Below the pieces are notes generated by a model, which was not told the origin of the DNA, made no database searches, and was given only the letters and a program-made list of their open reading frames with translations. Below are positions 3,701 to 53,772 of a stretch of DNA of 64,000 nucleotides, piece by piece. The translations under genes and the position numbers were made by a program. Positions within the stretch are counted from its first letter, which is position 1. Each line of letters opens with the position of its first letter. Source of the stretch: a virus (lineage: Duplodnaviria > Heunggongvirae > Uroviricota > Caudoviricetes); the IMG/VR virus record IMGVR_UViG_3300042295_001370, positions 69,673 through 133,672 of that record, one strand, 5' to 3'.

Positions 3701-4158
3701 CAGCACCTGAAGACTTGCGTATTACTTTCGCTGAATTTGACACATACAAAATGATGACTGATCAATTGATTTGGCATCCAGTCAAATACAAGCTGTTGTT
3801 TGGACAAAGTGCTGATCCTGAACTGCGAGTATCATTTAAGGTAGTTAAGAACTCTGGTGTAAGCATTACAGACAGTGAAATAAAAGCCCGGATTATTCGA
3901 GACATTGACAACTATTTCAGTATCGCTAACTGGGATTTTGGTCAAAGCTTCTTTTTCACTGAGCTTGCGGCATACATTCACCAACAAAATCCGGCTATCT
4001 TGAATTCCTTAGTGATTGTTCCACAAAACCAAAACAGTAGTTTTGGTGATTTATTTGAAATAAAATGTCAACCTGATGAAATTTTCATCAGCAGTGCCAG
4101 GGTCACTGACATTTTAATTGTTCCCAGCCTAAATCAAACTGAATTGAGATTGAAATGA
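778..4158 (+). CDS. baseplate wedge / baseplate-J (gp6-like) structural protein
   Basis: 1126 aa. The N-terminal region (DYDTIRQALIDYIRLNYPEDFNDW...SSEFVAIIELLAYLAS) resembles the baseplate-J / gp6 family, and the gene follows the gp25-like gene. Its stop codon overlaps the start of the next gene (ATGA). Confidence 0.4.
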   Translation: MSQSLRQNNLFLGQDWRVLYQAMSQVNFNAYDYDTIRQALIDYIRLNYPEDFNDWIESSEFVAIIELLAYLASSLAFRLDLNIRENFIDTATRRDSIFRLARLISYNPRRCIAAQGLVKLTQVITDQNIYDSNGFNLANVPVIWNDANNPDWFEQFILVLNASFSKVNPFGQPVKSGAVNGLTVERYDLDNTVTRTLAFPFTGVVNGQQMNFEFVNTDFVNSVSGSITVGSAGYYREKTPNYIQPWSVLYRNDGNGNASPDTGFFGLFKQGTLSFTDFVLSEPLSNRVLDLTALNVNESDVWVETVDDQGNTLVEWTKVPALFGTNIAYNSLNRSTRDIFQVITRDISGTDSISIKFSDGNFGNIPVGRIRVYFRTSNNLTYTILPQDISSVPLSLSYYRDNDGTSQNLLQMQFDLQSSVANSLSRESNAFIRERAPAVFYSQNRMVNGEDYNVYPLISSQALKIKSVNRVYSGQSRYIDINDPTSTYQNSKVFSDDGILFEEEHETYIEVPNSLNVNNTQILDTYIQPLIQGSVDSRKINTDMRDFYLAKYPKRGGGNIQWTNQNPSNTVFPNAHFYTQTVDFVLALPDTTYGIRKGSYLFFANGTSSYLVDEGNSVSSAGNAIISSFVPNGTMLSSVIPSFKDVLLSAEKDAVKNALDEKLSFGISYIQLTGMWQIISTSNLAVDADFSLAQQGNTANQNLDASWLIQLKYVPGFGWYITSRGLKYVFESVNDVRFYTINTSPVISSNTGLANQDFVKILRVNTNLATNLSFSQDWFWPIASQQLYPDGYIEPRRVQVRFQDSNFDGIVDNPDEFKVIVDPDREQQIDLDTGLITGSSFPYVFWKTTVINGFDYLTPTTVDKIFTDLISMSTKYPPNPLSWNDGEVAYVRDQKLFFKYQFSNNSLIDVTPSYKAAVGRNDLNYCWQHFIDKGKRVDPAIMNIIDTYVLTSSYDTAMRNWIARGKTTDPMPQPPAPEDLRITFAEFDTYKMMTDQLIWHPVKYKLLFGQSADPELRVSFKVVKNSGVSITDSEIKARIIRDIDNYFSIANWDFGQSFFFTELAAYIHQQNPAILNSLVIVPQNQNSSFGDLFEIKCQPDEIFISSARVTDILIVPSLNQTELRLK

Positions 4159-10100: not shown

Positions 10101-13100
10101 CGCCGGAGACATTGGGGACAAATTGCTCCAGGAATCAGCATTGACATTTATGAATGGATACGAAGCCTTGTGCCTCCTTCATCTTGGGCAGGCGCTGTTA
10201 CAGCGGGCAACTCAGCAGCCACAGGGGGAGATCAAACCCCTACAGGATCAGTAAAAGGTGCTGATTATCCCTACGTGTTGGCAAGTGAGCGTAATGAAAG
10301 CGGCCAATACACAAATGCCTATTACTTTTGGGTAAAAAACAAAACCACAGTGCCCAACGTGCCAGATCGCAAGATAAGTGTTGCATCTTTGAGTCAAATT
10401 GTTGAAAGTCCACAAACACAAAACCAAAGCTGGTGGGCCGCAATCAGCAGCACAGGCGCATTGTTAGCAAACATTGGCAGTTTCTTGGATGAAAACAACA
10501 CTGTCTGGCAAGTGAATTATACAAGTAGAGAAAATGTAGATAAAATCTACAAAGAGTGGACATTGTTGAGACCCAACGATCCTTTGAGCACACCTACACT
10601 AGATTTGTGGAGCAAAATGTGTGATAGTCTTGTGGAATTCAACAACGTAGGCAACAGTGTTCCCAATTTGCGACTGCCTGAAATGAGCAAGTATGGCATG
10701 CTGACACGACCTTCACAAAGTTGGTTCAAGGATGGTATTACTGCTAGGAGAGCTTTTGTTAAAAAAATCAACAGCCTCCTTAGCAGCAGCAGTGTGCCGC
10801 CATTGGATGACCCTGACAGGCTTGGCTGGTTACAGTATTTTCAGAGCGTAGAGCCACAGCCTCTCCAAAAAAATACCAAAGCCAATGCTCGAGTGGCAAC
10901 CACAACTGCTCTAGACACTGTTTACTATCCTGGGGAAAATGGCAAGGGTGCTACCTTAACCTATAATGGCTCATCTTATAGTGCATTGGTTGTTGATGGT
11001 ATAACAGTAAATTTGGGAGACCGAATAATTGTTAAAAATCAAAATCCAGTTACTCTTACCAGCTCTATTGTCACACAAACACCTAATCAAAATGGAATTT
11101 ATGATGTAGTGGACATTGGCTCGCTCAACAATCCATGGATCTTGATGAGGTCTGCAGATTTTGACAGCATAGATGACAACCTAATAGATGCACAAGTGTT
11201 GGTTTTGGAAGGTGCATCACAGCTATTGCCAACAACCTATATTCAAAACAACAAGAACATTTTGAAATTGGGAATTGATCCCCTAGAGTGGCAAATTGTA
11301 CGGCCAGTAAAAGGCATATTGCCCTGCAATTGGGATTATTACGTAGCTACTTTGGCGGCAAGAGATGCTTTGATTCCCAGCCTAATACCTGGTAACAAAG
11401 TTTTGGTAGATGTAAGTGCTGCCACCAACAACCGCTGGACCATTTGGCTTTATCAAGGACAAAACCAGTTTTCATTAGAGCGTATGCAAGCATGGGACAC
11501 TAACCAAGTTTGGTACTTGGTAGATTGGTATGCCAGCGGCATCAGTGCCGACACCCTGATTGGGGCTACTGTTGCCACTTTGGCTGACCGTGACACTCTT
11601 GTGGTTGACTCTGGAACTTTGGTCAAAGTGTTGAATACAGGCAATGGCCGTTGGAATCTTTTTGAATACACGCCTGATTCTGAAACCTTATGGACCGTAG
11701 TAGGTGTACAAAACGGCAATCTACAACTCAGTGACAATCTCTATGACTACGAAAAGTACAGCATGGGCTTCAGTGGAGGAAGTTATGCAGTTGATTATCA
11801 AGGTTGGGAGTATGATACACGCCTAGAATTGAGCTATATTTTGCAGGGATTGTGGCCTGAAAACAACAAAGCTGTGGGACTTTTGAAAGTTGACAGTGAT
11901 GTAAATGAACGTAACATGGTATTTTTTGAGCTAGTGAGCCATGTGCTGGCTGAACAAAATTTCGTAGATTGGTGTTTCAAAACAAGCTTTATCAATTTGA
12001 AAGGTTTCAGCCAACAACTCTTGAGTTCAGCCTATTATGACCCAAGTAAAATAGACAGCTTGGAAAAATATATTCAAGAGGTTAAACCCTACCACGTTGT
12101 CATACGCCAATTTGTGGATTACAGAGTGGTCTCGGACTATTGGGAAAGCAACAGCAGCGATTTGGATAACCCTCCCTATATTGACCTGAACAATAATGTT
12201 TCAATCTTGAATGTCAGTAACCCAGTTGATCTTGCGATTTTGTCCGGAGATACCATATACAAGCCGTGGTACGACAACTACAAAGCCAGCAGTGGTGCAT
12301 TGATTGAAACAGTGACCTTAACTGGTAACGGATCAACCAAATCTCTTCAACTAAGCACTAGCACCAAACCTGAAAATGTTTTGGTATACTGGAATAGCAA
12401 GCTTTCTCAAGCTTGGAATTTGCGTCCTGGAGACAACTCAATAATTGATTTGGTCTTTGTGCCTAACACTAACGATGTTGTGCAGGCGTATGTATACGCA
12501 TCTAGCTATCTTGAGCGTAAGACATTTATTGGTGACGGCATTTCTCAAATAGTAAGCATGACAAATCCCATAACTTGGCAATTTACACAAGTTCGATGGA
12601 ACAACTTATTAACTAATGATTATGAGATAAATTTAGACGACAGCACTCTCGTTGAACTCAACTTCACACCAGGTGTTGGAGATATTGTTACTGTGACTGT
12701 ATTTGATATAGCAAACCTCAGTGTACGCAGCACAAGGACAAAAATTGTGTTGGACCGACTGGCGTGTGTGCCCGCAGAAGACTATTACAGTCCTGGATAC
12801 AGCGAGAATACTGTGCCAAATAGGTTTATTGACACTATCGAAGAAATGAAAGCTCTGACAAACTTGCCTAATGGAGAAATAATCAAAGTAATTTACGACA
12901 ACATTGGGCTTTGGAGTTTGTTTGTGTTCAATCAAGGCATATTTGAATTGGTTGGATATCAACTGGATAACGGAGCAGCAGACAGAATTCAACAGTTGTA
13001 TCAGCCCACTCCTAGCATGCCTCCTCCAAATGATCCCTTACTGATCAGTGGATGTGCTCCCAAAGGAACAGTGTTGGATGGTTTGGATTTCAATCTAAAT

Positions 13101-16100
13101 GGTCGTTGGGGCGAGCCAGTGTGGGATGGCGTATTGGGCTGGGACAACACTAGCCAAGAAGTTGATCGGTTATTTGATCAATACATAAATGGTGGAGCAA
13201 GGCCACAATATTGGGTATTCAAAGGGGACGGGCTGCAAACAAAGTTTGCCCTGCCTCAGGCCCCACAAGCTCCAAATGACTTGCGTGTTTGGGTAAATGG
13301 TAATCTTCAAAACACTCCTCTCAATTGGACAGTCAAAAACTGGATAACTGCTGTGGATGTTGCTAATCAAGGATTAGGATATAGTGTAAATGATATACTC
13401 TCTGTATCTGGAGGCACTTATACTATTCCTGCTCAGCTGAAAGTAGTCAACACAAGTTTGACAGGTGCAATTTTGAAAATTGAGGTGGTCTTTCCAGGGG
13501 CATACACACTGACTCCCAGTGGAACAGCAGTGCAAGCCTCTGGCGGTTCAGGCGTAAATGCCACCTTTGTCCTACGTTGGGGCGGCACAAGTCTTGAATT
13601 TGCACTGGCGCCACTTAGTGCTGTAGCCAAACCCAACATTTGGGTAGCAGAAGCAGGCAGCACATTTGAAAGTGCCCTAGGAGGCACGCTTGATGCTGTA
13701 TATGATGGACAGGGGTTGAGTCGACCACATGTGGAAGGCAATCATCCTGAAGAGTTGTTCCCGCTTCAAGGAAAAGAAACCTTGATAATAGATGTTGCCA
13801 ATCAACCCACAGTGGGCTTTGGGAATGTGTTGTCTGAAAGTTGGCTTGGCGACAGCATTACTGATAGATTTTATATTGGCCAACCAGTGTTCAGTGCTGC
13901 TGACATTATTGTCAGTGTAGGCGGAATTTTGAAAACTCTAGGACCAACCTCTGATTATGTATATGATCCCAGCAGCAATAGCATTGTTTTTGTTTTCCCG
14001 CCAGTGGGATCAGTTGTAATTACCAGCTTTGGTTTTGGTGGAGCAACCCCTGGTCTCGGAAATTGGAGCATAGTAAATCAAGGAATTGATTACAACTTGA
14101 ACGATACTATCGTGTTAAGTGATACATCACAGAGCTACACATCTACAACAGTGTTAGTCACTGCAATACGTGCAACTGCTGTAAATGTAAATCAGCCAGG
14201 ATCTGGCTACAAGGTAGGAGATCTCTTGTATTTCAAATACGGGAGCGGAACGCAAACTTTGGTAATCAAGGTTGACAGCACTACTGCTTTTGGTGGTGTA
14301 GCTGGACAAATTACTGCTGTGAGTATTGTAAATCAAGGCTATTATACTCAGCCCAGCATAAGTCAAAATGAATGGTATACAAATGGAACAGGTATAGGAG
14401 GGTTGATTACTCCACAATGGGGAGTAGCCAGCATCTTGCCGTTGACTCGTGGTAGTTATTTGAATAAGAATGTTGGCCTCCAACAAGTGGGTGTAACCAT
14501 AAGTGGTGGAGCACCTGGTACTGGCACAGGGTTCAGCATTGCTAACTATTCCAGCCATATTCAAGAAACTAAAACTGTTGTTTTTGACATCACAAGTTTT
14601 GTGATCACAATGGATCAACCCATAGGCGCTAACACTATTCTGATGACTTGGAATGGAGTGCCTACAGTGAGTTTTGGTGTAAACCCTGCCGACAATCGTC
14701 AAATTGGACTGGGATTTACACCTTTGCCTGGCGACACTATTGTAATTTTGGTATACAGCAGTCAATATCAAAGTCTACAAAAATTACAGAGTTTGGTAGT
14801 AACCTTGCCATTGCTCACGTATCCGCTGAATTTGAATACACCAAATAATCCCTTGAGCGGATTCAATCCTGCACAAAGTAACAATGCACTGGTCTACAGT
14901 AACGGCAAGCGATTGAAGCCACCCTACCTTTTGAGTGCAATTGGTGACAACAACACAACAGCATATAATTTGGCTATTTTCCCAGATCCTGGGTCATTTA
15001 TTCAAGTTTGGTTAAATGCCTCAGTATTGCCTAACACAGAATATACATTGGCTGGAAATCAAATAATATTCACTACAGCGCCATCAGATAAAAGTTTCAT
15101 TTACATTGAAGTGGCTGATCCAGTCGCCCAAAACTATGATTATCAAATCCAAGGAACAAACCTACTTTTGGCAAGTTGGGCGGTGGTTGACGGCGATACT
15201 ATTGTTGTAAGAACTTGGGGTGAAGACAGCGCAAGTGCCTTTTATAACGATGTCTGGACAGGTGATTCCAGCAACCAATACCTATTCACCAATACTCCGT
15301 TGGAGTTCCAAAGTGTGCAAGTATGGCTCAACGGCAGTAGCTTAAGCTGGATTTTAGACTATACCATAGTCAAAACCGGAAACAGTTGGTACCTAAAGTT
15401 AGGAAATCATTACACTTTGACAGCAGCTGATGAGATTCAAGCCTATTATCCCACAGCGTTGCCCAGCAAAGATGGTGTTGCATTCCGTGCTGTGACAAAT
15501 GTGTATAACGACACACAATACCTACGCCTTGGGAATCAGGACAGGACCGTTCTTACTCAGGTGTTGAACTGGAATGATCAGGAAATTTTTGTAGCAAATG
15601 GCGACACTCTTCTTGAACCTGATGACAAACGACCTGGGGTTATTTGGATTGAGGGTGAAAGAATTGAATATTTTGACAAAGCTCCTGCGGCCTCAACTGC
15701 ATTTCCTAACCAAGCTGTTTTGAGAAAAATCAATCGTGGCACACTGGGAACACCTGGCGGCATTAGTGATAAATTTGTGGCACAGTATTGGAGTAGCACA
15801 GGCAACAGTGATTTGTATCCTGTAACTATTACAAACGCAGGAGAATGGCAAGCAGGAATGGTAAATGCGTATGTTATTGTGGATGGCAAGCTCCAAAACG
15901 ATTGGATGCTAGTAAGCAACCCCTCAAATGCAGCCCCTGGATTTTATCTGCAATTCCCCTCTCAGACATTGGCTCCAATTTTTGAACCACCTCCTGCAGG
16001 CAATAAAAATATTGGACTTATAATCTTCAAACAAGACTGGAAAACAACAGCTATGTCTCACCCAACTACCAGCGTAGTGCGAGATGGTAGTGTGCGGCAA

Positions 16101-16208
16101 GTTATCCCAGGTGGGTATCAGTGGCCTTATGGTGGACTAGGGCTACAATATAGCAGCACTTACCAAGCTCAATTTTTGTTGTCACAACCTGGGTCGATAC
16201 CAGCATAA
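4155..16208 (+). CDS. giant (4017 aa) virion structural protein (baseplate/fibre-associated, function unassigned)
   Basis: One uninterrupted 12-kb ORF translationally coupled to the gp6-like gene. The composition is Asn/Thr/Ser/Gly-rich and beta-rich, with internally repeated Ig-like segments (for example VTAVDVANQGLGYSVNDILSV... and VTAIRATAVNVNQPGSGYKVGDLLYF...). No catalytic motif was seen. Its position matches the very large gp7-like proteins of some T4-like phages. Confidence 0.6.
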   Translation: MSDTKRRISDLLPEVLQTDILRKFFAATADHLFQPEKVEYLNNYIGRMPSWYNPKKDFYVVETSKSRQDYQVEATAISRSQGSDTVSHILFYEDLLNKLRSQGALVNDHNRLFEQEYYSFGLPCDVDMWLNFQEYVWLSDGPDTITLLDITDLSSVSNESAYVYAGTYAIANNPSSIINGATHPLVFSTGLKIKPTLDLDIALRDRELIIEGVGRKIYFVDDTDSSIKIRWDNPKEYDSTPWDGVDKLVTPAYVVMHRGSSNQNPWSIRNRWFHRDVLVQSQTLLQDVNALVAKYPIICFDKTTKLWNFGTIGRGRVTVVDSFTTDLGSLIGRSQSNSNPLLVDGISLDDGMTILFTNLVDGQANNRIYRVSGLRSDNKLTLQLLPNQSDVTGAPKNNDSLYVASGNPLNRFFDTYLRFQSSTNSWVSAQSWKQTVDSQSPLFELFDIDGNSLSDPSIYPLSSFSGSSLFSYDPSQLAAINQGSLLVSANELTFENTLSQNTWTYQPNNLRVDISGFKFWQTVDPVTTQPVYQNNWFKSPVLSRQYVVNQFYTQESQKTFTLDQAPGTGAPGPSAINVEVSGVLLTPDQYTVSGKVLTLANSVQPNSNVVVKTWQNITNIATTGYFEIPKNLEANPNNLEVSTITRQNIINHLITVIGNQSNIIGNIIGANNWRDTAQNQSLGTVILQHRAPLLKTMILNSIAQTSALTSSNALLDPIGVMQWSQKEYLRFYNKYINSLVNLFNSGGLTLANPISEWLDKALKSINVGKTLSSPWAMSGFDGVPGRYCSEKSITPTFVPASAARLGVTPSFVPTAFFDVTQPNSPLSLRCHNGAVVVLQDFNGADLGTIADQQSSTVDPQLLTHPVARAWMQLEVNLFNSLPASYRNPDSVQKLDIKTIFSGKWRTTNYSYKDQLTMLYPVFERWLTTNQLDAFKNTTYKIDDPFSWNYSSCTDQENNPVPGHWRGIYFLFFDTDRPNSCPWEMLGFSQQPLWWNAEYGAAPYTSGNTQLWYDLRDGRIRQGQRQGIDPAYARPGLMQYLPVDEFGQLLPPGPARIVTTLPSEIEARADWKFGDRGPLENVWLTAVDSDQIWAQIGYLAKPAQFIEYLWDGPRAQQIFATQTNSQWVWKDYRKRISNSDIFVHREDPQNVTTLSSDLSYYGSCGIQHWISEYLINDSRSVTEYFGNVIRNSDVTLGYRAGGFIDGTSVKLLVDSFGLSSNDSLLIPQEDVTNNLIRSASLKEFFYSGVIVEYRGSEGYRVIGYDSYDPNFYVIPSNLTGPKTTVIVDKIKVIEYKLGLPSVKKVPYGTILPTQQDVFDFLVSLGRWQVSQGWIFDEYSSTTGQLQDWSLSGREFLFWSQGPWAAGNYIALSPLALKTKFVTSFGTIQNIGGIVNGSYTILDRGGRPIQVQNIDFLRIDDQVSVRPLNDQGIFGIRLYTTGLEHALLFQNKTIFGDIVYDPLFDVRQSRFKIQTYKSMDWAGRLEAPGYLVTQTTSTIGDRIIVNNQILANFEKTVDDIRKLYNIDVPTPYNYSDSTGMHTNATSALSQALPKRYNMLATHLVGYQQREYLTNLLVDETTQFQFYQGMIKQKGTKGTIDSLLRNTQLVDANESFSYYEEYAFRLGTYGSNELIHGIDVLLLQTEVRSNPQLVEFFSGSIEDLAYDDTITITPKDSRVLYKSEATPNFSLRSHYGSAPGDLPNSGYVLFSEATYYVKDQAELFSLSQTLETKNTPLQAHDRVWQFIDTAIGWNIYKVCRPAWQIQQTTPVTLNQTTISTSLPHNLQNGNILVLSGVTGVNGRLDGTFSVFNVTRNTFDVQATTSATGANGQVLQYWSIRFPTYAAFNNATPPGGWTQRDFAYVDGNQDEPWKVYQKYGVWFEYRREDKKVDTSLLLTSTLYNKTTLQTLAHLNIWDPSKGALPGLVNEEVTYRTHWDPASYNAGDSRLYQVDPSTAWGPNQVGQTWWDLSTTRFIDYEIGTDSYRRRHWGQIAPGISIDIYEWIRSLVPPSSWAGAVTAGNSAATGGDQTPTGSVKGADYPYVLASERNESGQYTNAYYFWVKNKTTVPNVPDRKISVASLSQIVESPQTQNQSWWAAISSTGALLANIGSFLDENNTVWQVNYTSRENVDKIYKEWTLLRPNDPLSTPTLDLWSKMCDSLVEFNNVGNSVPNLRLPEMSKYGMLTRPSQSWFKDGITARRAFVKKINSLLSSSSVPPLDDPDRLGWLQYFQSVEPQPLQKNTKANARVATTTALDTVYYPGENGKGATLTYNGSSYSALVVDGITVNLGDRIIVKNQNPVTLTSSIVTQTPNQNGIYDVVDIGSLNNPWILMRSADFDSIDDNLIDAQVLVLEGASQLLPTTYIQNNKNILKLGIDPLEWQIVRPVKGILPCNWDYYVATLAARDALIPSLIPGNKVLVDVSAATNNRWTIWLYQGQNQFSLERMQAWDTNQVWYLVDWYASGISADTLIGATVATLADRDTLVVDSGTLVKVLNTGNGRWNLFEYTPDSETLWTVVGVQNGNLQLSDNLYDYEKYSMGFSGGSYAVDYQGWEYDTRLELSYILQGLWPENNKAVGLLKVDSDVNERNMVFFELVSHVLAEQNFVDWCFKTSFINLKGFSQQLLSSAYYDPSKIDSLEKYIQEVKPYHVVIRQFVDYRVVSDYWESNSSDLDNPPYIDLNNNVSILNVSNPVDLAILSGDTIYKPWYDNYKASSGALIETVTLTGNGSTKSLQLSTSTKPENVLVYWNSKLSQAWNLRPGDNSIIDLVFVPNTNDVVQAYVYASSYLERKTFIGDGISQIVSMTNPITWQFTQVRWNNLLTNDYEINLDDSTLVELNFTPGVGDIVTVTVFDIANLSVRSTRTKIVLDRLACVPAEDYYSPGYSENTVPNRFIDTIEEMKALTNLPNGEIIKVIYDNIGLWSLFVFNQGIFELVGYQLDNGAADRIQQLYQPTPSMPPPNDPLLISGCAPKGTVLDGLDFNLNGRWGEPVWDGVLGWDNTSQEVDRLFDQYINGGARPQYWVFKGDGLQTKFALPQAPQAPNDLRVWVNGNLQNTPLNWTVKNWITAVDVANQGLGYSVNDILSVSGGTYTIPAQLKVVNTSLTGAILKIEVVFPGAYTLTPSGTAVQASGGSGVNATFVLRWGGTSLEFALAPLSAVAKPNIWVAEAGSTFESALGGTLDAVYDGQGLSRPHVEGNHPEELFPLQGKETLIIDVANQPTVGFGNVLSESWLGDSITDRFYIGQPVFSAADIIVSVGGILKTLGPTSDYVYDPSSNSIVFVFPPVGSVVITSFGFGGATPGLGNWSIVNQGIDYNLNDTIVLSDTSQSYTSTTVLVTAIRATAVNVNQPGSGYKVGDLLYFKYGSGTQTLVIKVDSTTAFGGVAGQITAVSIVNQGYYTQPSISQNEWYTNGTGIGGLITPQWGVASILPLTRGSYLNKNVGLQQVGVTISGGAPGTGTGFSIANYSSHIQETKTVVFDITSFVITMDQPIGANTILMTWNGVPTVSFGVNPADNRQIGLGFTPLPGDTIVILVYSSQYQSLQKLQSLVVTLPLLTYPLNLNTPNNPLSGFNPAQSNNALVYSNGKRLKPPYLLSAIGDNNTTAYNLAIFPDPGSFIQVWLNASVLPNTEYTLAGNQIIFTTAPSDKSFIYIEVADPVAQNYDYQIQGTNLLLASWAVVDGDTIVVRTWGEDSASAFYNDVWTGDSSNQYLFTNTPLEFQSVQVWLNGSSLSWILDYTIVKTGNSWYLKLGNHYTLTAADEIQAYYPTALPSKDGVAFRAVTNVYNDTQYLRLGNQDRTVLTQVLNWNDQEIFVANGDTLLEPDDKRPGVIWIEGERIEYFDKAPAASTAFPNQAVLRKINRGTLGTPGGISDKFVAQYWSSTGNSDLYPVTITNAGEWQAGMVNAYVIVDGKLQNDWMLVSNPSNAAPGFYLQFPSQTLAPIFEPPPAGNKNIGLIIFKQDWKTTAMSHPTTSVVRDGSVRQVIPGGYQWPYGGLGLQYSSTYQAQFLLSQPGSIPA

Positions 16209-21787: not shown

Positions 21788-23020
21788 TTAAGTGTCAAAA
21801 TAGTAAGGCAAAACTTCTTTGCTATGTTGATCAACAAAAAGTGCACCCAAACGACCGCCTTTGCTGCTACCACAATCTGTAACAAATGCCCGGCCGCCAC
21901 AAGAATTTGCTTTTTCCACAACGTTGTAACTGACACGATCAAGCCAATCATGCCCTACAACAACAGTATGATCAGCAGGTATGTTTTGAACCCAATTCCA
22001 GATACGGTTTGGATATCCATCATTCTTGGTCGGTGAAACAGTGTCTACCTCACCAAAATAGGCCATATTTGCACAAACACCTTGCAATCTGCGATCCTTG
22101 TTGGCCCACATGGCAGGTGTTGCTGCACCATGAGTAAACAAAAATTTTCCCACTGTTAGGTGGTTAAAACTCCAGTTTCTTAGTGCTGTCCAAGCTGCAA
22201 GAAACTTCTTTTTCCGCAAGTCATTCAAACTGTTGATTTCTCTTATAGTAGATAGATTTGACTCGCTAAGTTTGCCATTAAAGGTTTCACCCAAGTCGCT
22301 CCTAATCCAGCGATCAATTTTTCTTTCGTGATTTCCCCAAATCATAAGTGCTTGCCCGTCTCGAACAGTGTCATATGCAAGTTTCAAACATTTGAGATTA
22401 TTGGCGCCATAGTCCACAATATCTCCCAGCCACACTAGCTTTGCGTGTAACTGTTGTGCCATTTGCACTGCCTGCTGCATAGCTGGAAAATTGCCATGAA
22501 CATCGCCTACTGCTAAAATCCTTGCACTCTGCAATTCATTTGGAAATCCAACAGTGGTTTCGTCACCACACAGCACAACAGCTCGTTTATTATCGCCCTG
22601 TAACACCTGTGTGCGAGCATTTTTCCATATACTATAGCTTTTTCTCAAAGAGTCAAAGTCATAACAAGAACCAGAGTTTTGCTGTATTGTGCCCCATTCA
22701 AGGTCAAAAGGTTTGTAATAGACTTCCACACCATACTTTTCGGCAATATCAAGAAAAGTAAATCTGTCCTTGTCTTTTAGATTAGTGGAATCAACTACTG
22801 CACGTTGCCCGTTGGCGATACGAATATCAACTCTACGATAGAGTTCGTGCCAAATATTTGGCAAAATATCCACTGTTGAATTGTTGCCTGTCAACTCTTT
22901 CTTGATTGAAGAAAGGCTTATGATTTCATCAGCGTCAAACTGGTTTTGGGCCCATGTGCTTTTGCCACTCTTAGTGGGACCAATCAAAACTACTATACTA
23001 TGTAAGGATAACTTTTTCAT
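21788..23020 (-). CDS. polynucleotide kinase-phosphatase-like protein (P-loop kinase + calcineurin-like metallophosphoesterase)
   Basis: N-terminal Walker A (IGPTKSGKST). C-terminal metallophosphatase motifs GDVHGN / GDIVDYG / GNHE. This is the domain pair of bacterial Pnkp-type RNA end-healing enzymes. Confidence 0.55.
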   Translation of the reverse strand: MKKLSLHSIVVLIGPTKSGKSTWAQNQFDADEIISLSSIKKELTGNNSTVDILPNIWHELYRRVDIRIANGQRAVVDSTNLKDKDRFTFLDIAEKYGVEVYYKPFDLEWGTIQQNSGSCYDFDSLRKSYSIWKNARTQVLQGDNKRAVVLCGDETTVGFPNELQSARILAVGDVHGNFPAMQQAVQMAQQLHAKLVWLGDIVDYGANNLKCLKLAYDTVRDGQALMIWGNHERKIDRWIRSDLGETFNGKLSESNLSTIREINSLNDLRKKKFLAAWTALRNWSFNHLTVGKFLFTHGAATPAMWANKDRRLQGVCANMAYFGEVDTVSPTKNDGYPNRIWNWVQNIPADHTVVVGHDWLDRVSYNVVEKANSCGGRAFVTDCGSSKGGRLGALFVDQHSKEVLPYYFDT

Positions 23021-33412: not shown

Positions 33413-33530
33413 AGGTGTCCACCAGAGTTTTGATCTCTTGCTCAGCCTCTTCCAGCGTGGAGACTGTGCGCCAAGTGCCGTTGGGACTGCTCACTCGAAA
33501 CTTCACCGTGTCACCTTTGTAGGCCATCAT
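33336..33530 (-). CDS. hypothetical protein
   Basis: Start codon overlaps the ligase stop codon (ATGA). Confidence 0.35.
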   Translation of the reverse strand: MMAYKGDTVKFRVSSPNGTWRTVSTLEEAEQEIKTLVDTYGVAWAAVDRIETTRILVRQVKADE

Positions 33531-34744
33531 TCGTCTCCCACACTTTGCTGGCTCCACCGCGGCGCACGGAACAGTGAGCGTGCCTCGTCCACCCGGGTCT
33601 GCGTGCCAGTGCATTTGCGGATCACATCGCACACCAGCTCACGCCAGTCCACGTGGCCCTCACGGGCCCAGACCTTGAACACAGCACTACGCAGGTTGGG
33701 CTCAAGACCCGGTGCTGCCTCCAGTGCAAACCGCTTTCTATCGTCACCAAACTGCCGCCGGAGCTTGACATACTGGTCCTTCCATATGTAGGCAGTTTGC
33801 CCCACACCCGTCCAGAAGGCGTTCTCGTAGGCGTCGATGCGAGCCAGGTCCTCCACAGGCAGAAAGCTCTTGACGTCGTCCAGCTTTTCCGCCAGCATGA
33901 GGTCGATGAGGTTCTTCTCCTGCGTGAGAGCATCCTTGGCACGGTGGATACGCACATACCAGGCCGATTTCAACTTGGCCATATGTCCATCATCCCACCG
34001 GATGATCCACCCCTCCTCGCCTTCCAGCTCATGCGTCTCCCGAACGAGCTGCTCCATGCTAGCCACAGTACCAGGATAGGCCTTGACTAGATCCAGCTCA
34101 TACTCGGCCGCCAGTTCCTGCATCTGAGAGTAGGTGAGATACTCACCCGAGTTGATGTGACGCACAGCAGTCAGCACCAGTCGATCAACTGGATAATCAC
34201 ACACAATCTTTTGTTGACGAGTACACCACTCGAAACAGGCAGTGTATCCCTGCTCCAGTGTGTCTCGGATAAATCGGTCATAGTTGTCTCGAGTTGCCAC
34301 GAACGGCTCAACCTGTGCTGCTACAGCAGTGGGCCCCATCTTGGTTGCAAGACAGTAGCCCTTACCTAGAGGTAGAGCACGAATCATACTTCCATCCAAC
34401 TTCTCAAGGATGATGTGTGGCTGAGTGAGATCGATGTTTTCAATCAAAGTCTCGCGCCGTTCGCCCACGTTCCAAAACTTCTGAAATGCGCGGCTCACCA
34501 ACTTTCCATCAAGGCTGAACAGCAGCCCCCTACACTCCCGGCGGATAGCCTTGAGTCGAGTCTGCCGCTCGCGCATGCTGGCGCTGCCTCCAGCAGTATG
34601 GACCTCGGGGAACATGTCCGGGCCCATCTGAATGTAGTTGACCACAGTGCCCCAGGGCCGCTGGGCTACAATGAAGCCTTCCACACCCTGGACAGCTTCC
34701 AGCACTTGATCCAGGTGCGTGATCTCGGGAAACGTGTAGTGCAT
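33527..34744 (-). CDS. RNA ligase, Rnl1-like (nucleotidyltransferase KxDG family)
   Basis: Motif I 'IILEKLDGSMIRA' closely resembles T4 Rnl1 'TKEDGSLVS'. Size 405 aa. A GTTGACA-N16-TATACT promoter lies immediately upstream. Confidence 0.6.
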   Translation of the reverse strand: MHYTFPEITHLDQVLEAVQGVEGFIVAQRPWGTVVNYIQMGPDMFPEVHTAGGSASMRERQTRLKAIRRECRGLLFSLDGKLVSRAFQKFWNVGERRETLIENIDLTQPHIILEKLDGSMIRALPLGKGYCLATKMGPTAVAAQVEPFVATRDNYDRFIRDTLEQGYTACFEWCTRQQKIVCDYPVDRLVLTAVRHINSGEYLTYSQMQELAAEYELDLVKAYPGTVASMEQLVRETHELEGEEGWIIRWDDGHMAKLKSAWYVRIHRAKDALTQEKNLIDLMLAEKLDDVKSFLPVEDLARIDAYENAFWTGVGQTAYIWKDQYVKLRRQFGDDRKRFALEAAPGLEPNLRSAVFKVWAREGHVDWRELVCDVIRKCTGTQTRVDEARSLFRAPRWSQQSVGDE

Positions 34745-38833: not shown

Positions 38834-39316
38834 TTAGGGATAGAGTTTGAGATGGCCTAGAATGTCTGAAACTTCGGGCTTGTTGCGATCCACAAGGCAC
38901 CAAATGCAAGTGGTCTCTTGGCGAGTCATCAGCACACGCCCATCATCCATGGTTTTGATGACAGCTGCCTTGCCATTAGCTGCAACAAGATCAGCTACCT
39001 CTTGATTTTCCACAAAAAATGGGTAGCTGGGGTCGACGACTGACCCCTTGACAGTGAGGTGGTATTCCCAACCATAAGTGCATCTCAGACCATGAAGCTG
39101 GTCCATTGTGGCACCCAGCACAATTGTGGTGTTGAAGTAGTAGGCACCTTGTGAGACACCGTCGGCAACATACTGTTGAACTAGTGGATGATCTGCAAAT
39201 AGGCTCATCATCTGGGTTCCAGCATGATGTACTTGTGCAGCCAGCTTTCCTGGGTTCATACTGGGCAGATCAGTTCGGGCCAGCACGTAGACAGCTAGAT
39301 CAGGCGTGGCTTCCAT
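38834..39316 (-). CDS. peptidyl-tRNA hydrolase, PTH2 family
   Basis: LARTDLPSMNPGKLAAQVHHAG... and the C-terminal ...ILGHLKLYP correspond to the PTH2 signatures (VRTDLxMxKGKxAAQxxHA ... GHLKLY). Start moved downstream of its promoter. Confidence 0.7.
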   Translation of the reverse strand: MEATPDLAVYVLARTDLPSMNPGKLAAQVHHAGTQMMSLFADHPLVQQYVADGVSQGAYYFNTTIVLGATMDQLHGLRCTYGWEYHLTVKGSVVDPSYPFFVENQEVADLVAANGKAAVIKTMDDGRVLMTRQETTCIWCLVDRNKPEVSDILGHLKLYP

Positions 39317-39340
39317 TTGTTGTTCTCCTTGTGTAGCTTC

Positions 39341-39368
39341 AATATACAGCACAGACAGACTGTGTCAA
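39341..39368 (-). promoter_or_regulatory. sigma70-like promoter GTTGACA-N16-TATATT with AAGGAG ribosome-binding site
   Basis: Reverse complement reads gGTTGACAcagtctgtctgtgctgTATATTgaagctacacaaggagaacaacaaATG. Confidence 0.5.
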
Positions 39369-39500: not shown

Positions 39501-40800
39501 CCAGCGTCATGCGCCCAGGTTCTTGGCGACCGTGGTCGCGGCAGGCTGGCTCATGGCGTGGCGGTCCTCGCTGCGGCGGCTGGGCGGATGAGGACATAAG
39601 TAGGTGAAAAATGCACTTCTGAGAACACGCACAGGCCGATGCGCCGGGATGCGGTAACTCATCCGCCGTAGCCGCGCGGATGGGCTTCGCGCCAGGCCAG
39701 GGCGGTGGCGACGATGTCATCCAGTGCTGCGAGGCGCGGCTGCCAGCCGGTTTCGCGCATGATCCGCGCCGGGCTGGCAACAAGGCGGGCGGGGTCGCCA
39801 GGGCGGCGTGGGGCGAAGCGGTGCGGCACCGGGCGGCGGCTGACGCGCTCCACGCTCTGGATCACCTCCAGCACCGAATGCCCGGCGGCGGTGCCGAGGT
39901 TGTAGGTGACGCTGGCGTGGTCCAGCCGCTCCAGCGCCGCGAGGTGGGCGGCGGCGAGGTCGGTGACATGGATGTAGTCGCGGATGCAGGTGCCGTCCGG
40001 CGTGTCGTAATCGGTGCCAAACACGGCGAGTTCGGCGCGACGGCCGAGCATGGCGTCGATGGCCAACGGGATCAGATGGGTTTCCGGCGTGTGGTCCTCG
40101 CCCAGGCGGCCCTGCGGGTCGGCGCCGGCGGCGTTGAAGTAGCGCAGGCAGGCGGAGCGCATGCCGTGGATGCGTTCGGCCCAGCCCAGCGCGCGCTCCA
40201 TCATCCATTTGCTTTCGCCGTAGGGTGAGCCGGGGTCGATCGCGGTTTCCTCGTCGATCGGCATGCGGTCTGGCGTGCCGAACAGGGCGGCGGTGGAGGA
40301 GAACACGAAGCGGGGCACGCCGTGCTTCACGCAGGCCTCCAACAGGCGCAGGCCGTTGCCGACATTGGCCGAGAGATAGCCGATCGGGTCGCGCATGGAA
40401 TCGCCCACCAGCGACAGCGCGGCGAAGTGGAACACCGCATGCCACGGCCCCTGCGCCAGCACGGACGCGATCGCATCGGGGTCCTCCAGCGCGCCGGTGA
40501 CCAGCGTGGCGCCGGGGAGCACGGCTTCGCGATGGCCGGTGCGCAGGTTGTCGAACACCACCACCTCCGCGCCTTGGTCCAGCAGGGCGGCGACGAGATG
40601 GCTGCCGACGAAGCCGGCACCTCCGGTAACGAGAAAGCGGCGTGACATGGCGGCATCCTGAAATGGCCAGCCGGCTAGCCAGCGGGGTCGCGTCCGAGAA
40701 TGACCGGCTCCTGGGTTGCGATCCAGTGCAGCAGCCCTGTGGGGTCGTATGGGTTGGGGAAGGCACGGCGCGGGCACGCCAGAGCAGGCAGCAGTTCGCA
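39490..40800. other. about 1.3-kb GC-rich (~68 % GC) island of foreign composition carrying galE
   Basis: There is an abrupt composition shift against the roughly 42 % GC background. Alternative frames here yield only Arg/Pro/Ala-rich artefact ORFs. Confidence 0.7.
39659..40648 (-). CDS. galE: UDP-glucose 4-epimerase
   Basis: MSRRFLVTGGAGFVGSHL... includes the Rossmann GxxGxxG motif and the SSTAALFG...YGESK (YxxxK) catalytic motif, with full-length collinearity to GalE (329 aa). Start set at MSRRF; the ORF track extends it to 40801. Confidence 0.85.
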   Translation of the reverse strand: MSRRFLVTGGAGFVGSHLVAALLDQGAEVVVFDNLRTGHREAVLPGATLVTGALEDPDAIASVLAQGPWHAVFHFAALSLVGDSMRDPIGYLSANVGNGLRLLEACVKHGVPRFVFSSTAALFGTPDRMPIDEETAIDPGSPYGESKWMMERALGWAERIHGMRSACLRYFNAAGADPQGRLGEDHTPETHLIPLAIDAMLGRRAELAVFGTDYDTPDGTCIRDYIHVTDLAAAHLAALERLDHASVTYNLGTAAGHSVLEVIQSVERVSRRPVPHRFAPRRPGDPARLVASPARIMRETGWQPRLAALDDIVATALAWREAHPRGYGG

Positions 40801-40953
40801 TATGATTTGTTTTTGTTCGGGAGTGTCCTGTTGGTGCATGGCGCTGGCACCCAACTCCATGTACTGTTTAATCAAACCTTGCGCCACAGGGTTGTCAGCT
40901 ACCCGATAGCCCTTGAGTGTGCCCCATTTCAAGAGAATATAGTTTTCGGTCAT
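40675..40953 (-). CDS. possible chimeric ORF: AT-rich phage-like 5' half fused to GC-rich 3' half
   Basis: The N-terminal 50 codons (MTENYILLKWGTLKGY...) have phage composition and the remainder is GC-rich. It may be the 5' part of the LTW-family gene that was disrupted by the island. Confidence 0.25.
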   Translation of the reverse strand: MTENYILLKWGTLKGYRVADNPVAQGLIKQYMELGASAMHQQDTPEQKQIICELLPALACPRRAFPNPYDPTGLLHWIATQEPVILGRDPAG

Positions 40954-41469: not shown

Positions 41470-42681
41470 TCAGTTGAACTCCGTTGCCTCGCCGTTCTTC
41501 ACTCGGCGGAGCAGATACGCCGGAGAGATGAATTTGCAGATTTTCCTACCGTGCAGGGGATGCTCGGTGGGAACCAGGCTGCGCACCACCACACCTTCCC
41601 GCACATTGGTGCCACCCACCGTTGTGACACCGTCTCTCACAGCCTCAATGGCAGTTTGGTCAAAGGGGCCAGTGTAGAGGGTAGGTACACAGGGCAGGTC
41701 CTTTGCCCAGTAGGCCACGGCATCGGGACTTAGCCACTCCCGCCCGATCCGCATGTCGAACACCCGGAACGTGGGCTTAGTGGTGCCGTAGTCGAGGTCC
41801 TGCACGCCCTTGCCGAAAACTTCTCCCAGGATAGCCACCGGATGAGCACCGCCGTCCACCTTGCTCATCCTGTGGAGGAGCCCGGCGAGGTCATGGTCGG
41901 CTAGCAGTGTGCCAAGTGCCCGCACATAGAGGTTGTTGGCGTTGGCTTCGTTGTTCTTGAACACCAAACCCTGACCGCCTAGTCCCTTGCTGCTGACAGT
42001 GATGCTGCGGTAGCCTGCATGGTCGGGGAACATCTCGGGATGGTCCATGCCTGGGAAGTACTGGATGATGGTACAAGATCCATGAATTTTTTCTTGGGCC
42101 ACCACCACCTCACCAGGTTCGAAGATGTCAGGCACGCTCTCCCAACGCTGAAAATCGTAGGTAAGAGCAGCCTCAGCAACACTGGCAACTTCACCAGACA
42201 TCGCAGCGGGAATGGGCGGCTCCCACCTGGTGATGCCCAAGATTGCAGCAGCATCCTCGCCTAGCTTGACTGGATATTCAAGACTGTCTTTGCCTACTAC
42301 ATGTACATCCGTCGCCGACCCAAAATCAGCAGAAAGGCAATCGTCATCACCATATGCAATGAGCCCATACAGCACACCTTCGCTGAAAATACCACGCAGC
42401 TTGAGTGGCTTCACACGGTTGCCATCACTGCCTGCCAGCACACCCTTACCAGCGTCTTCGTTCCAAAATCCCATGTCCTTGAGCAGCCATTCAGGCAGCA
42501 CCGAGGCTGAGGGAATGTATACGACCCAGTCACCGGGCTTGTAGCGCGGGCTACCATCCTCTAGTTTGTTTGCGATGCAGAGATAACCGAGGCCTTCAAG
42601 GCGCACAAGAGAAAGGCGATCCGCATTCGGATGTTCTTCGACTGCGGCCACACGCACCACAGGGCAACTGAACTTGCTCAT
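41470..42681 (-). CDS. RNA ligase, Rnl2-like nucleotidyltransferase with N-terminal tRNA-binding (Myf/EMAP-like OB) domain
   Basis: N-terminus VVRVAAVEEHPNADRLSLVRLEGLGY matches the 'HPNADKL' tRNA-binding OB-fold signature. Motif I 'VVAQEKIHGSCTI' matches T4 Rnl2 'EKIHGTN'. Confidence 0.6.
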   Translation of the reverse strand: MSKFSCPVVRVAAVEEHPNADRLSLVRLEGLGYLCIANKLEDGSPRYKPGDWVVYIPSASVLPEWLLKDMGFWNEDAGKGVLAGSDGNRVKPLKLRGIFSEGVLYGLIAYGDDDCLSADFGSATDVHVVGKDSLEYPVKLGEDAAAILGITRWEPPIPAAMSGEVASVAEAALTYDFQRWESVPDIFEPGEVVVAQEKIHGSCTIIQYFPGMDHPEMFPDHAGYRSITVSSKGLGGQGLVFKNNEANANNLYVRALGTLLADHDLAGLLHRMSKVDGGAHPVAILGEVFGKGVQDLDYGTTKPTFRVFDMRIGREWLSPDAVAYWAKDLPCVPTLYTGPFDQTAIEAVRDGVTTVGGTNVREGVVVRSLVPTEHPLHGRKICKFISPAYLLRRVKNGEATEFN

Positions 42682-42750: not shown

Positions 42751-43047
42751 TTATGCCATTTCCTCAACCACCCACTCATCCACCACCACAGCCCTCACAC
42801 AGTAATGTGTTCCAGGAGCCATGTCTGTCACAGAATTGAACAAGTGAGTGTAGTATCTTTGGCCAATTTGCTTGATGGTAGGCAGTTTGAGATAGGTCTT
42901 ACCAGTTTTGCTGAGATTGCTCTTTACTGCAATCGTGCCGCTGCCATAATAGCTGGGTAGGTCTGCGAGCTTGACTCGCACTTCCCTGCTGGGGCAAAAA
43001 TACATGCTAGTAGGCACATGCAGGATCCGATAAACAGCAGCCATCAA
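42751..43047 (-). CDS. hypothetical protein
   Basis: 98-aa ORF. Confidence 0.3.
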   Translation of the reverse strand: MMAAVYRILHVPTSMYFCPSREVRVKLADLPSYYGSGTIAVKSNLSKTGKTYLKLPTIKQIGQRYYTHLFNSVTDMAPGTHYCVRAVVVDEWVVEEMA

Positions 43048-43631
43048 ACCAGGCCCATTTCCTGTCGGATGAAGCGGAGCAGGCCAGCCATGCTGTCCAC
43101 ATTGCCGTTAGCACCAATCACTGCCCGCAGTGCCCGGCTCCGAACGTCTCGAGAGATGTTCATCTGCAGGCTTGTGTTGATCCAGTCAATCTTCTCGTTC
43201 ACCTTGGCCATTGTCATCCGGTTGGGGTTGAACTTGGCGTTCCAGTTGCTGCCCATGCCATCACTGCTGGGATCGCGCTTGCTGTTCACATTGCGCACAC
43301 CAACGTTTGTAAGACCCTCCTGGATCAGCTGATCCGCCACCTGTTCCTTGTGTTCAGCAGCACGGATCATGTTGGGAAACTCGCCCTCCACGTCCTGTGT
43401 TTCCCAACCCTCATATTGGGTGTTGACAAAAGCCAGCATCAGCCCACCAGTGAGAACGCGATCGTTCTTGTAGTTGCCTACCAAGCCCTGTTCATATGCA
43501 TAACGGCTCTTGCCTGCAATACCCTGCCAAGTGGTGTTAGCAGCCTTGCTGTCAACATTGTGAATGCTCACATGAAACAACCGCTTGGCGGCGTGCTTGT
43601 GAACAACGATCTTCTGAGGCTTGTTGGTCAT
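43044..43631 (-). CDS. hypothetical protein
   Basis: 195-aa ORF with a TTGACA-N16-TATGTT promoter at 43651-43684. Confidence 0.5.
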   Translation of the reverse strand: MTNKPQKIVVHKHAAKRLFHVSIHNVDSKAANTTWQGIAGKSRYAYEQGLVGNYKNDRVLTGGLMLAFVNTQYEGWETQDVEGEFPNMIRAAEHKEQVADQLIQEGLTNVGVRNVNSKRDPSSDGMGSNWNAKFNPNRMTMAKVNEKIDWINTSLQMNISRDVRSRALRAVIGANGNVDSMAGLLRFIRQEMGLV

Positions 43632-43695
43632 GTCATGTACTCCATTTACCAGCGCAACATAGCAGGATATTGAGTGTTGTCAACCAAAGATGTGC

Positions 43696-44067
43696 CTAAA
43701 AGGGCGTAATTGTGCTGGCAAAAGCCTCCACAACGTCCTTGGCCTCTTTCAGGCCCAGAGCCGTTTCAGTTCGCAGCTCTTTGATGGCATTGATCTTCAT
43801 GCCAGCACGAACATAGTCTTCCACAGACTTGCTGATGGTGACCCCATACATGGTGGGACGTTCAGTATTTGTGAGGCGTCGCATAGCTTCCCGACTGGTT
43901 TCGTCCAGGATCAAGATGTCGCGTGCATCTCGTGACAGTGCGTAGATGTCGTGTGCCCGAGCTTGCCCTTCTCGAGCACCTTCGTGGCTTAGGTGGATGA
44001 TCTCGTTCACCAGGTGCACTAGGCGCTTGAAGTCATTGTCAGAAAGGTTTCCGAGATCATCGGTCAT
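43696..44067 (-). CDS. protein with ribosomal protein bL12 (L7/L12) C-terminal-domain-like segment
   Basis: C-terminal '[25 protein letters not shown]' compares with E. coli bL12 '[25 protein letters not shown]'. Length is 123 aa against 121 aa for bL12. The last ~25 residues of a canonical CTD are absent. Confidence 0.5.
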   Translation of the reverse strand: [123 protein letters not shown]

Positions 44068-52884: not shown

Positions 52885-53772
52885 TTATCGATATCTATCC
52901 AGCACAGTTTGCAGCTCATTTACCAGTTGATCAACACCAGTTTCTCGCTTGACACCGGTGGTGAGAGGGCCATAGTGCATTGACAAACAGTCAAGAAGTA
53001 GATGTTTGATCCTCTTCTCATCTGGCTTATCTCGCAACGTGCTGTTGGCATGTAGTGTCTCTAGAGATTTTTCCTTGACATCAAACCAACTGTCCAGCTG
53101 CTCTAGTGTCCACTCACCTCGCCGAATGCTCTTGAGCACCTCGCTGTTGCGCTCAATGTCAAGGTCATGCTCTACCAGGATCTGCTCGCATTGCAGCATG
53201 AGCCTCACTACATGCACTCCAAACTTCAGATCCCATCCGTGTTCAGCAATAGTGGCAGCTCTTTTGGGATTGCTGCTGTTGGTTTTGTTGCGAATTTTTG
53301 AAATTTGTGAAAATGCGTATCCCCGAAGTTTTCCCATAGCTCCTTTGTGGAGGAACTCTTTCCTATGCTCTCTCACATGCTCTGCGATTTTGGTGCTGTG
53401 GAGAATGCAGCGGCGGGGAAGAAAGAGAACGTCCAAAACATTTGGATTATTTTCCATCGCCAGTTGCATAAAATCAACGATATTATAAATAGAAAAGTCC
53501 AACTCTTTCCGTTGATCCGGCAGCTGAATGTGATGCTCGCTCCACACTCGAAACCGCTGTTCCTGTGTGCCAAAGCCATACACCCTGCCGCCGTCGGTGA
53601 AGGGGAACACAATCTCACGGGGCGGGATGCAGAAGCCAAAGCAGTCCATGTCACTCGTGTCGTTGCTGACACCATAGGCAGCACTACCAGCATAGCCCAG
53701 AAATTGAGTGTTGTCGGGCAACCACTTGGGCGGGTGTATGAGTTTTCGGTCAACTAATGTGTGCAGCAGCAT
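52885..53772 (-). CDS. Pol-beta superfamily nucleotidyltransferase (RlaP-like)
   Basis: N-terminal hG[GS]...[DE]h[DE]h nucleotidyltransferase signature (LGYAGSAAYGVSNDTSDMDCFGF). About 290 aa with an alpha-helical C-terminal half, like the RNA-ligase-associated Polbeta nucleotidyltransferases (RlaP) predicted in RNA-repair operons (Burroughs & Aravind). Confidence 0.55.
   Translation of the reverse strand: MLLHTLVDRKLIHPPKWLPDNTQFLGYAGSAAYGVSNDTSDMDCFGFCIPPREIVFPFTDGGRVYGFGTQEQRFRVWSEHHIQLPDQRKELDFSIYNIVDFMQLAMENNPNVLDVLFLPRRCILHSTKIAEHVREHRKEFLHKGAMGKLRGYAFSQISKIRNKTNSSNPKRAATIAEHGWDLKFGVHVVRLMLQCEQILVEHDLDIERNSEVLKSIRRGEWTLEQLDSWFDVKEKSLETLHANSTLRDKPDEKRIKHLLLDCLSMHYGPLTTGVKRETGVDQLVNELQTVLDRYR

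Follow-up and report, generated by a model that had tools for sequence, protein, structure and literature searches.

Domains of the ribosomal stalk protein bL12 have been described in seven cultivated phages and in many metagenomic ones, where they frequently make up a short part of a larger protein that is otherwise unrelated (Mizuno et al. 2019, PMC6375957). In the Sulfitobacter phage phiCB2047-B, for example, the bL12 domain covers 25% of a protein of 126 residues (AGH07436). The authors found that the residues contacting EF-G and EF-Tu are conserved in phage bL12 domains, which were acquired independently. L7/L12 has also been listed among the translation genes of huge phages (Al-Shayeb et al. 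2020, PMC7162821). Both reports agree with the statement, made in a preliminary description of the present locus, that phage-encoded bL12 is known from metagenomes. In bL12 itself, helices 4 and 5 of the C-terminal domain (CTD) are reported to bind helix D of EF-Tu (Kothe et al. 2004, as cited in PMC12179292).

The phage protein considered here is encoded at 43696..44067, on the minus strand, of the window, which is the whole 64,000-nucleotide stretch of viral DNA that was analysed. The reading frame is complete, with an ATG start, 123 codons and a stop, and its exact translation is the protein of the preliminary description, in which the strand was not given. An AGGA element resembling a Shine-Dalgarno sequence is located ~10 nt upstream of the ATG, and 12 nt separate the start of the gene from the stop of the preceding ORF on the same strand. 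The identical 123-aa protein is encoded on at least 28 metagenomic contigs, the longest of 328 kb, which confirms that the ORF is a real, conserved gene; the gene calls of four independent assemblies include it. A near-identity DNA search of deposited phages gave no match for the window, and neither further copies of the bL12-like motif nor tRNA genes were found within it. A sigma-70-like promoter match (TTGACA-16-TATGTT with an extended TG, 10/12 in a consensus scan; 43656..43683, minus strand) lies in the 64-nt gap directly downstream of the gene and ahead of the next one (43044-43631), in a region where the count of promoter-like sites is not above the shuffled expectation.

We consider it very probable (about 0.9) that this protein is not ribosomal and that a jumbo myovirus of the Rak2/PA5oct type encodes it as a small, acidic accessory protein. 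Two modules make it up, each conserved independently of the other. The N-terminal one is a helical hairpin with an invariant charged motif, confined to this phage family. The second is a three-helix mini-domain of ~45 residues whose last two helices are homologous to helices 4 and 5 of bL12, and which is a mobile unit also found in tandem pairs, in membrane-anchored forms and in fusions to other phage N-termini.

The bL12 similarity of the C-terminal stretch is genuine and well beyond chance. The Pfam family of the bL12 CTD, PF00542, matches the 123-aa protein with an E-value of 2.1e-7; the score of 31.6 bits exceeds the curated cut-off (25.9). The same model matches all 17 of the aligned family members. 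A pairwise BLASTP comparison with E. coli bL12 gives 15 identities over 25 ungapped positions (E 5e-7), while a PDB search with a family profile of the C-terminal 56 residues retrieves bL12 chains only, at E-values from 1e-8 to 1e-4. The CTD-like segment pointed out in the preliminary description is borne out by all three comparisons. Since the Pfam score exceeds the cut-off and genes for a baseplate wedge, for tail fibres and for a giant virion protein lie in the same window, the gene counts as a virus-encoded bL12-domain gene. Like the phage proteins of Mizuno et al., it shows a partial PF00542 match in an otherwise unrelated sequence, varied genomic contexts and conserved contact residues. 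The cultivated examples of those authors are podoviruses with genomes below 80 kb, whereas the family of the window belongs to large or jumbo T4-like myoviruses and has an N-domain of its own, which sets it apart from them as far as the published descriptions go. Literature searches on PF00542 together with phage, and on the names of the bL12 contact residues, returned nothing usable.

The similarity has sharp borders. The PF00542 match spans positions 11-41 of the 67 in the profile, and the PDB matches span positions 22-52 of the 56-residue module, corresponding to helices alpha4 and alpha5 only. The homologous core, as delimited by the Pfam positions, the PDB alignments and BLASTP, is a stretch of 25 residues (residues 91-115; 43723..43797, minus strand) equivalent to K65-S89 of E. 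coli bL12. These helices are the part shared with the bL12 CTD (PDB 1CTF, 1DD3), and a 21-residue stretch of D. radiodurans bL12 differs from the phage protein at only five positions. The complete alpha/beta CTD (beta1-alpha4-alpha5-beta2-alpha6-beta3, 67 Pfam positions) is not found in the phage protein. It ends eight residues past helix 5 and thus lacks the final 25-30 residues of a canonical CTD, so that strand beta2, helix alpha6 and strand beta3 are not possible.

AlphaFold2 (AF2) predictions agree with a division into two modules. The N-terminal hairpin (residues 10-66; 43870..44040, minus strand) consists of two helices, 10-32 and 37-66, with pLDDT values of 83-89, and is also marked by its conservation. 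It carries the near-invariant motif Y42-x3-R46-D47-x-R49-D50-x4-D55-x2-S58-R59. Among 48 full-length members, the conservation is 1.00 for Y42 and R46, 0.94 for D47, 0.85 for D50 (with Glu in a further 0.15), 0.90 for D55, 0.94 for S58 and 0.96 for R59. Because the N-domain is as conserved as the C-terminal motif, it is expected to have a function of its own. The hairpin is followed by a short polar linker of ~7 residues, TNTERPT (residues 66-72; 43852..43872, minus strand), where the pLDDT falls below 50 at residues 65-68 and the columns of the family alignment are variable.

The C-terminal mini-domain (residues 73-119; 43711..43851, minus strand) was delimited by AF2 of the module alone, by hhalign and by more than 5,200 database matches. 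It is predicted to contain a tiny beta-hairpin, a pre-helix (80-87) and the equivalents of alpha4 (91-102) and alpha5 (106-119). The module on its own is predicted with a pLDDT of 85.6 and a pTM of 0.69, and the full-length protein with a pTM of 0.42, which suggests that the orientation of the modules to each other is not fixed. This accounts for the outcome of a Foldseek-type search with the full-length model, which returned helical-bundle matches only, none of them significant. The preliminary description was right about the helical N-terminus, the absence of an Ala/Gly hinge and the loss of the last ~25 residues of the CTD. Its term 'truncated' holds for the missing end of the CTD, but the module as predicted is a three-helix mini-domain and not a truncated CTD fold.

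The C-terminal motif closes every full-length family sequence that was examined. In the same 48 members, its conservation is 0.96 for I92, 0.94 for A94, 0.96 for I95, 0.88 for K96 (with Arg in a further 0.12), 0.98 for R99, 0.98 for L106, 0.81 for E108, 0.94 for A109 and K110, and 0.83 for D111. A word-indexed search gave 25 relatives, which are 100-192 aa long. An exhaustive HMMER search of 1.84 billion representatives with the N-terminal profile gave 47 matches at E<=0.001; ~40 of these are single-stretch matches of the family type, 35 of them 118-136 aa long. Other members lie on contigs of 121 kb and 408 kb together with T4-type rIIB, spanin and DnaE-like genes.

The preliminary description proposed that the protein could substitute for the ribosomal stalk. 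In such a scheme, the N-terminal hairpin would dimerise and bind the C-terminal helix of uL10 as the bL12 N-terminal domain (NTD) does, and the phage protein would replace host bL12. The coarse layout of the two proteins is indeed parallel, with a helical hairpin, a linker and factor-binding helices within 123 aa, and the phage protein resembles bL12 in being acidic, in its overall length and in its retained factor-contact positions. One or more peptides of a phage bL12-domain protein of 418 aa (Salmonella phage FSL SP-076, AGF88397) were also detected by mass spectrometry in purified 70S ribosomes (PMC6375957). On the other hand, a tagged phage bL12 protein proved unusable for purifying ribosomes in the same work, and the phage protein of the window differs from bL12 in lacking NTD homology, the Ala/Gly hinge, beta1, beta2, alpha6 and beta3. 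A 13-sequence profile of the N-terminal 69 residues, searched against the PDB including full-length bL12 (1RQU, 1DD3), retrieves no bL12 chain at E<=10, and Ribosomal_L12_N (PF16320) does not match the 123-aa protein at that threshold. The hairpin has no match in the PDB or Pfam at all. The linker is not the long Ala/Gly/Pro-rich hinge of bL12, and half of the CTD is missing. Three of the four testable bL12 features (NTD, hinge and complete CTD) therefore fail, leaving the contact residues of helices 4 and 5, and we regard a stalk substitute as very improbable. The sequence observation of the preliminary description is correct; its interpretation goes too far but is supported in part.

The second module is not restricted to the phage family. 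In an hhalign comparison with gp3 of the Streptomyces phage EGole, only residues 61-121 are shared (probability 97.7), and the N-terminus of gp3 is a different one. EGole gene 3 (QBP30801; 2953-3393 in locus L005), located close to the left end of the genome, encodes a hypothetical protein and has equivalents in ~40 Streptomyces phages of the BE cluster. The BE-cluster gene lies ~2.5-3.3 kb from the end of the genome and occurs twice in each record, which is consistent with a terminal repeat. Matches to six PHROG families are limited to the motif, and the position of the motif differs in each family profile. When the module profile was searched against a database of 5.8 billion proteins, more than 5,224 of the 8,000 candidates scored were significant matches. 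The best 118 matches outside the family are all 49-106 aa long, and none is a canonical bL12. The module profile scores 63-118 bits against these non-ribosomal mini-domain proteins and 33-37 bits against real bL12 chains.

The proteins of this class, which are commonly annotated as 'ribosomal protein L7/L12' and include EGole gp3, share with the phage family a unit of ~40-45 aa with alanine, glutamate and alanine at positions 68, 75 and 86. They differ in carrying the unit alone, in tandem, beside transmembrane (TM) segments or on other N-termini, and the N-terminal hairpin of the 123-aa family is absent from them. The PF00542 coordinates are 5-41 in all those examined and never extend past about profile position 41. 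Tandem units occur in at least 20 of the top 118 non-family matches, often annotated as DUF6793 (PF20593) plus PF00542, and a TM-like segment occurs in 41 of the 118. Some mini-domain proteins are encoded on bacterial chromosomes, for example in Sphingopyxis, Virgisporangium and Nocardioides. Literature on DUF6793 and on the mini-domain class was sought and none was found, and L12 is not mentioned in a survey of polyvalent proteins.

Two of the architectures can be described separately. Bacterial chromosomal proteins of 85-106 aa (P0114-P0187; loci L009, L011 and L012) combine one mini-domain with an N- or C-terminal TM segment and are annotated as 'ribosomal protein L7/L12' or as hypothetical; they may be membrane-tethered bL12-like hairpins. 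Other proteins of ~100 aa (P0072-P0112), and one of 192 aa (P0025), are tandem two-unit forms with PF20593/DUF6793 and PF00542 matches, in which a low-complexity Ala/Gly/Pro/Ser linker separates the units. This duplication hints at multivalency.

The phage family and the mini-domain class have in common a pre-helix consensus, V-x-x-[LYF]-[IV]-R-A-G, and the unit continues with K-I-x-A-I-K-x-x-R and then G-L-K-E-A-K-D-x-V-E. Both groups have Ala at the position of V68, Glu or Asp at I75 and Ala at L86, where canonical bL12 has Val, Ile/Ala and Leu/Met, respectively; this comparison covers four canonical sequences only, and the pattern with which the units were extracted itself restricts the residue classes at several positions. 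Together with the added pre-helix of the predicted three-helix unit, these substitutions are diagnostic, and V68, I75 and L86 are the only positions that differ consistently from the four canonical sequences. The changes A67 to Asn and A71 to Glu had also been considered, as a buried face turned polar, and were rejected, as the bL12 proteins of D. radiodurans, T. thermophilus and T. maritima have Asn, Glu or Gln there too. Because of the shared pre-helix consensus, the residues A68, E/D75 and A86 and the higher bit scores, the phage module belongs to a large class of mini-domains that derives from the helix 4-5 hairpin of bL12 or has a common ancestor with it, and is not a recent capture of a host rplL gene.

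The module could be a generic interaction or structural module unrelated to translation factors, contacting some other protein or, in the manner of a helix-turn-helix (HTH) or helix-hairpin-helix (HhH) motif, nucleic acid. Its likeness to bL12 would then reflect ancestry and packing, and the activity of the protein would reside in the N-terminal hairpin. The more than 5,200 matches, the non-ribosomal nature and diverse architectures of the top 118 and the higher scores against them than against real bL12 are what such a module would give, and there is no conserved neighbour related to translation. The fold search with the C-module also points this way, as the nearest structures are three-helix bundles of a generic kind, homeodomains and the FtsK gamma domain among them; no match of these is significant (E >1 and probability <=0.2 for the homeodomain and FtsK-gamma matches), and bL12 was not retrieved. 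The G-h-G-x3-A pattern in GLGLKEAKD resembles the HhH consensus, and an HTH-like geometry of the bL12 helices was reportedly described by Rice and Steitz in 1989. However, no HTH or HhH family of Pfam matches the 123-aa protein at E<=10, and the acidic nature of the family (median pI 5.5, net charge -3, with a neutral C-module) would be unusual for a nucleic-acid binder. It is also hard to explain by fold alone that the solvent-facing charges of helix 5 are identical to those of bL12 throughout the class. We see a generic module as a real possibility, at less than even odds.

The mechanism that we prefer, tentatively and also at less than even odds, is that the protein interacts with EF-Tu, EF-G, IF2 or RF3 at a place other than the stalk; this half of the preliminary proposal, a decoy for the factors, stays plausible. 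The protein may do so because the mini-domain keeps the equivalents of the bL12 GTPase-contact residues V66, I69, K70, R73, L80, E82, K84 and D85, the first six of which are published factor-contact positions of bL12. These equivalents are nearly invariant also in 130 units from outside the family. Through them, the module would bind the factors off the ribosomal stalk, and the N-terminal hairpin would provide oligomerisation, and thus avidity for an intrinsically weak contact, or a second, phage-specific partner, or both. The net effect would be that translation factors are sequestered or re-routed during infection. The isolated CTD of bL12 binds the factors weakly, as known from NMR, and an effective decoy would therefore need a high copy number or avidity.

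Several observations can be set beside this off-stalk engagement. The substitutions V68 to Ala, I75 to Glu/Asp and L86 to Ala would fit the loss of the rest of the CTD with the outward surface retained, and the charged face of helix 5 (K81, E82, K84, D85 and E88) is conserved even though it is unable to be core. Multivalency recurs in the class, in the tandem two-unit proteins and the two copies in P0025, and may echo the multi-copy bL12 stalk. Precedents in the literature are the binding of helices 4 and 5 to EF-Tu helix D and the phage bL12-domain peptide or peptides detected in 70S ribosomes. The island around the gene and the rest of the window hold RNA ligases and PTH2-like and Pnkp-like genes, all tied to the translation apparatus. 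Against factor binding, the conservation of I92, I95 and L106 could be purely structural, these residues forming a three-helix core against the pre-helix. In addition, the same residues are kept in thousands of differing architectures, including membrane anchors, for which a single shared partner is not obvious, and the neighbourhoods of family members are not conserved while the bacterial contexts are uninformative.

A more elaborate version of off-stalk engagement, which we consider doubtful, is that the hairpin oligomerises and displays several bL12-type hairpins as an off-ribosome 'pseudo-stalk', concentrating or trapping the EF-Tu ternary complex and EF-G at a site chosen by the phage or away from the host ribosomes. 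On this view, the thousands of mini-domain proteins that bacteria encode in tandem or membrane-anchored form would be translation-factor tethers, of an extra-ribosomal kind that has so far gone unrecognised.

Phage proteins with bL12 domains have been known since 2019, and the existence of this gene will not surprise a specialist. What is added is the delimitation of a jumbo-phage family with its own N-domain, and the connection of its module, predicted to be a three-helix mini-domain, with a vast class of non-ribosomal proteins that widely carry the annotation 'ribosomal protein L7/L12'. The family is a minimal and well-delimited case, with 123 aa, two modules and near-invariant candidate contacts, so that off-ribosome GTPase binding is directly testable and the function of phage bL12-domain proteins gains a compact entry point. 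The same module in gene 3 of the cultured BE-cluster Streptomyces phages offers a tractable experimental system. If the binding is true, phages, and perhaps bacteria, would have a new way to manipulate or localise translation factors. If it is not, a widespread mis-annotation is corrected, as thousands of small bacterial mini-domain proteins are annotated as ribosomal protein L7/L12, probably wrongly.

The window, part of a jumbo myovirus, encodes tail fibres and a baseplate wedge protein that shares 38-42% identity with its counterparts in Sinorhizobium phage Phosso and the Pseudomonas PA5oct group. The bL12-like gene belongs to a long array of minus-strand genes and sits at the margin of an island rich in GC, at ~33.5-44.1 kb. 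Most genes of the island have a GC content of 0.53-0.70 and a GC3 of 0.59-0.84, against 0.40-0.43 and 0.36-0.39 for the structural genes; the GC3 of the bL12-like gene is 0.59. The island contains an Rnl1-like ligase (phrog_562; 33527-34744), a PTH2-like peptidyl-tRNA hydrolase (a fragment match; 38834-39352), whose GC3 of 0.46 is lower than in the rest of the island, and a second RNA ligase with a PHA02142 OB domain (41470-42681), all on the minus strand, in addition to Band7, HNH and epimerase genes. The epimerase/dehydratase gene (39659-40801) has a GC of 0.70 and a GC3 of 0.84, which suggests recent acquisition from a high-GC source. It overlaps ORF 39717-40850 on the minus strand in a different frame; Pfam supports 39659-40801 only, and the second ORF is probably a by-product of the high GC.

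Outside the island, the minus strand of the window encodes a Pnkp-like kinase/phosphatase (21788-23020) and an RlaP nucleotidyltransferase (52885-53772). The island is an accessory region, probably acquired horizontally, with repair of the translation apparatus as its theme. The Pnkp/Rnl1 toolkit of T4 is classically used against anticodon nucleases, and the RNA/tRNA-repair and translation-rescue genes of the window suggest a defence against such host enzymes. In this setting, the protein could be a counter-defence decoy, mimicking the bL12 surface and so intercepting a host abortive-infection or toxin effector aimed at the stalk-factor interface or at EF-Tu, a purpose that can be likened to that of the tRNA-repair genes. 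The GC-rich island with its two RNA ligases, PTH2-like, HNH and Band7 genes, the Pnkp-like and RlaP genes elsewhere in the window, and the small, acidic and fast-evolving nature of a protein encoded in early-type arrays of small genes at all loci seen would agree with this. The case is purely one of context, other members of the family have different neighbours, and this analysis documents no defence system aimed at bL12; we regard such a decoy as unlikely.

For the genes adjacent to the bL12-like gene (products of 195, 98, 101 and 370 aa), scans with Pfam and PHROG gave nothing functional. An RNA ligase and unknowns accompany the gene in the window, an Eco57I-type methyltransferase and ClpP accompany two other family members (loci L006 and L007), and DUF6745 accompanies a further one (L008); as the neighbourhoods differ, synteny names no partner. 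The context of three bacterial mini-domain loci was uninformative. In Woeseiaceae-like contigs (L011 and L012), an EF-G-family gene (1-1092) is located ~4 kb from a membrane-anchored mini-domain gene (5001-5270). This EF-G paralogue is encoded on the other strand, with four genes intervening, and is not seen in the other two bacterial loci, and its proximity is probably a coincidence.

Directly after the baseplate wedge gene of the window, an ORF of 4,017 aa (4155-16208, plus strand) matches the 'virion structural protein' family phrog_10938 with 1,397 bits and, weakly, a head-decoration family too. It is a giant virion or fibre protein of the type found in Rak2-like jumbo phages.
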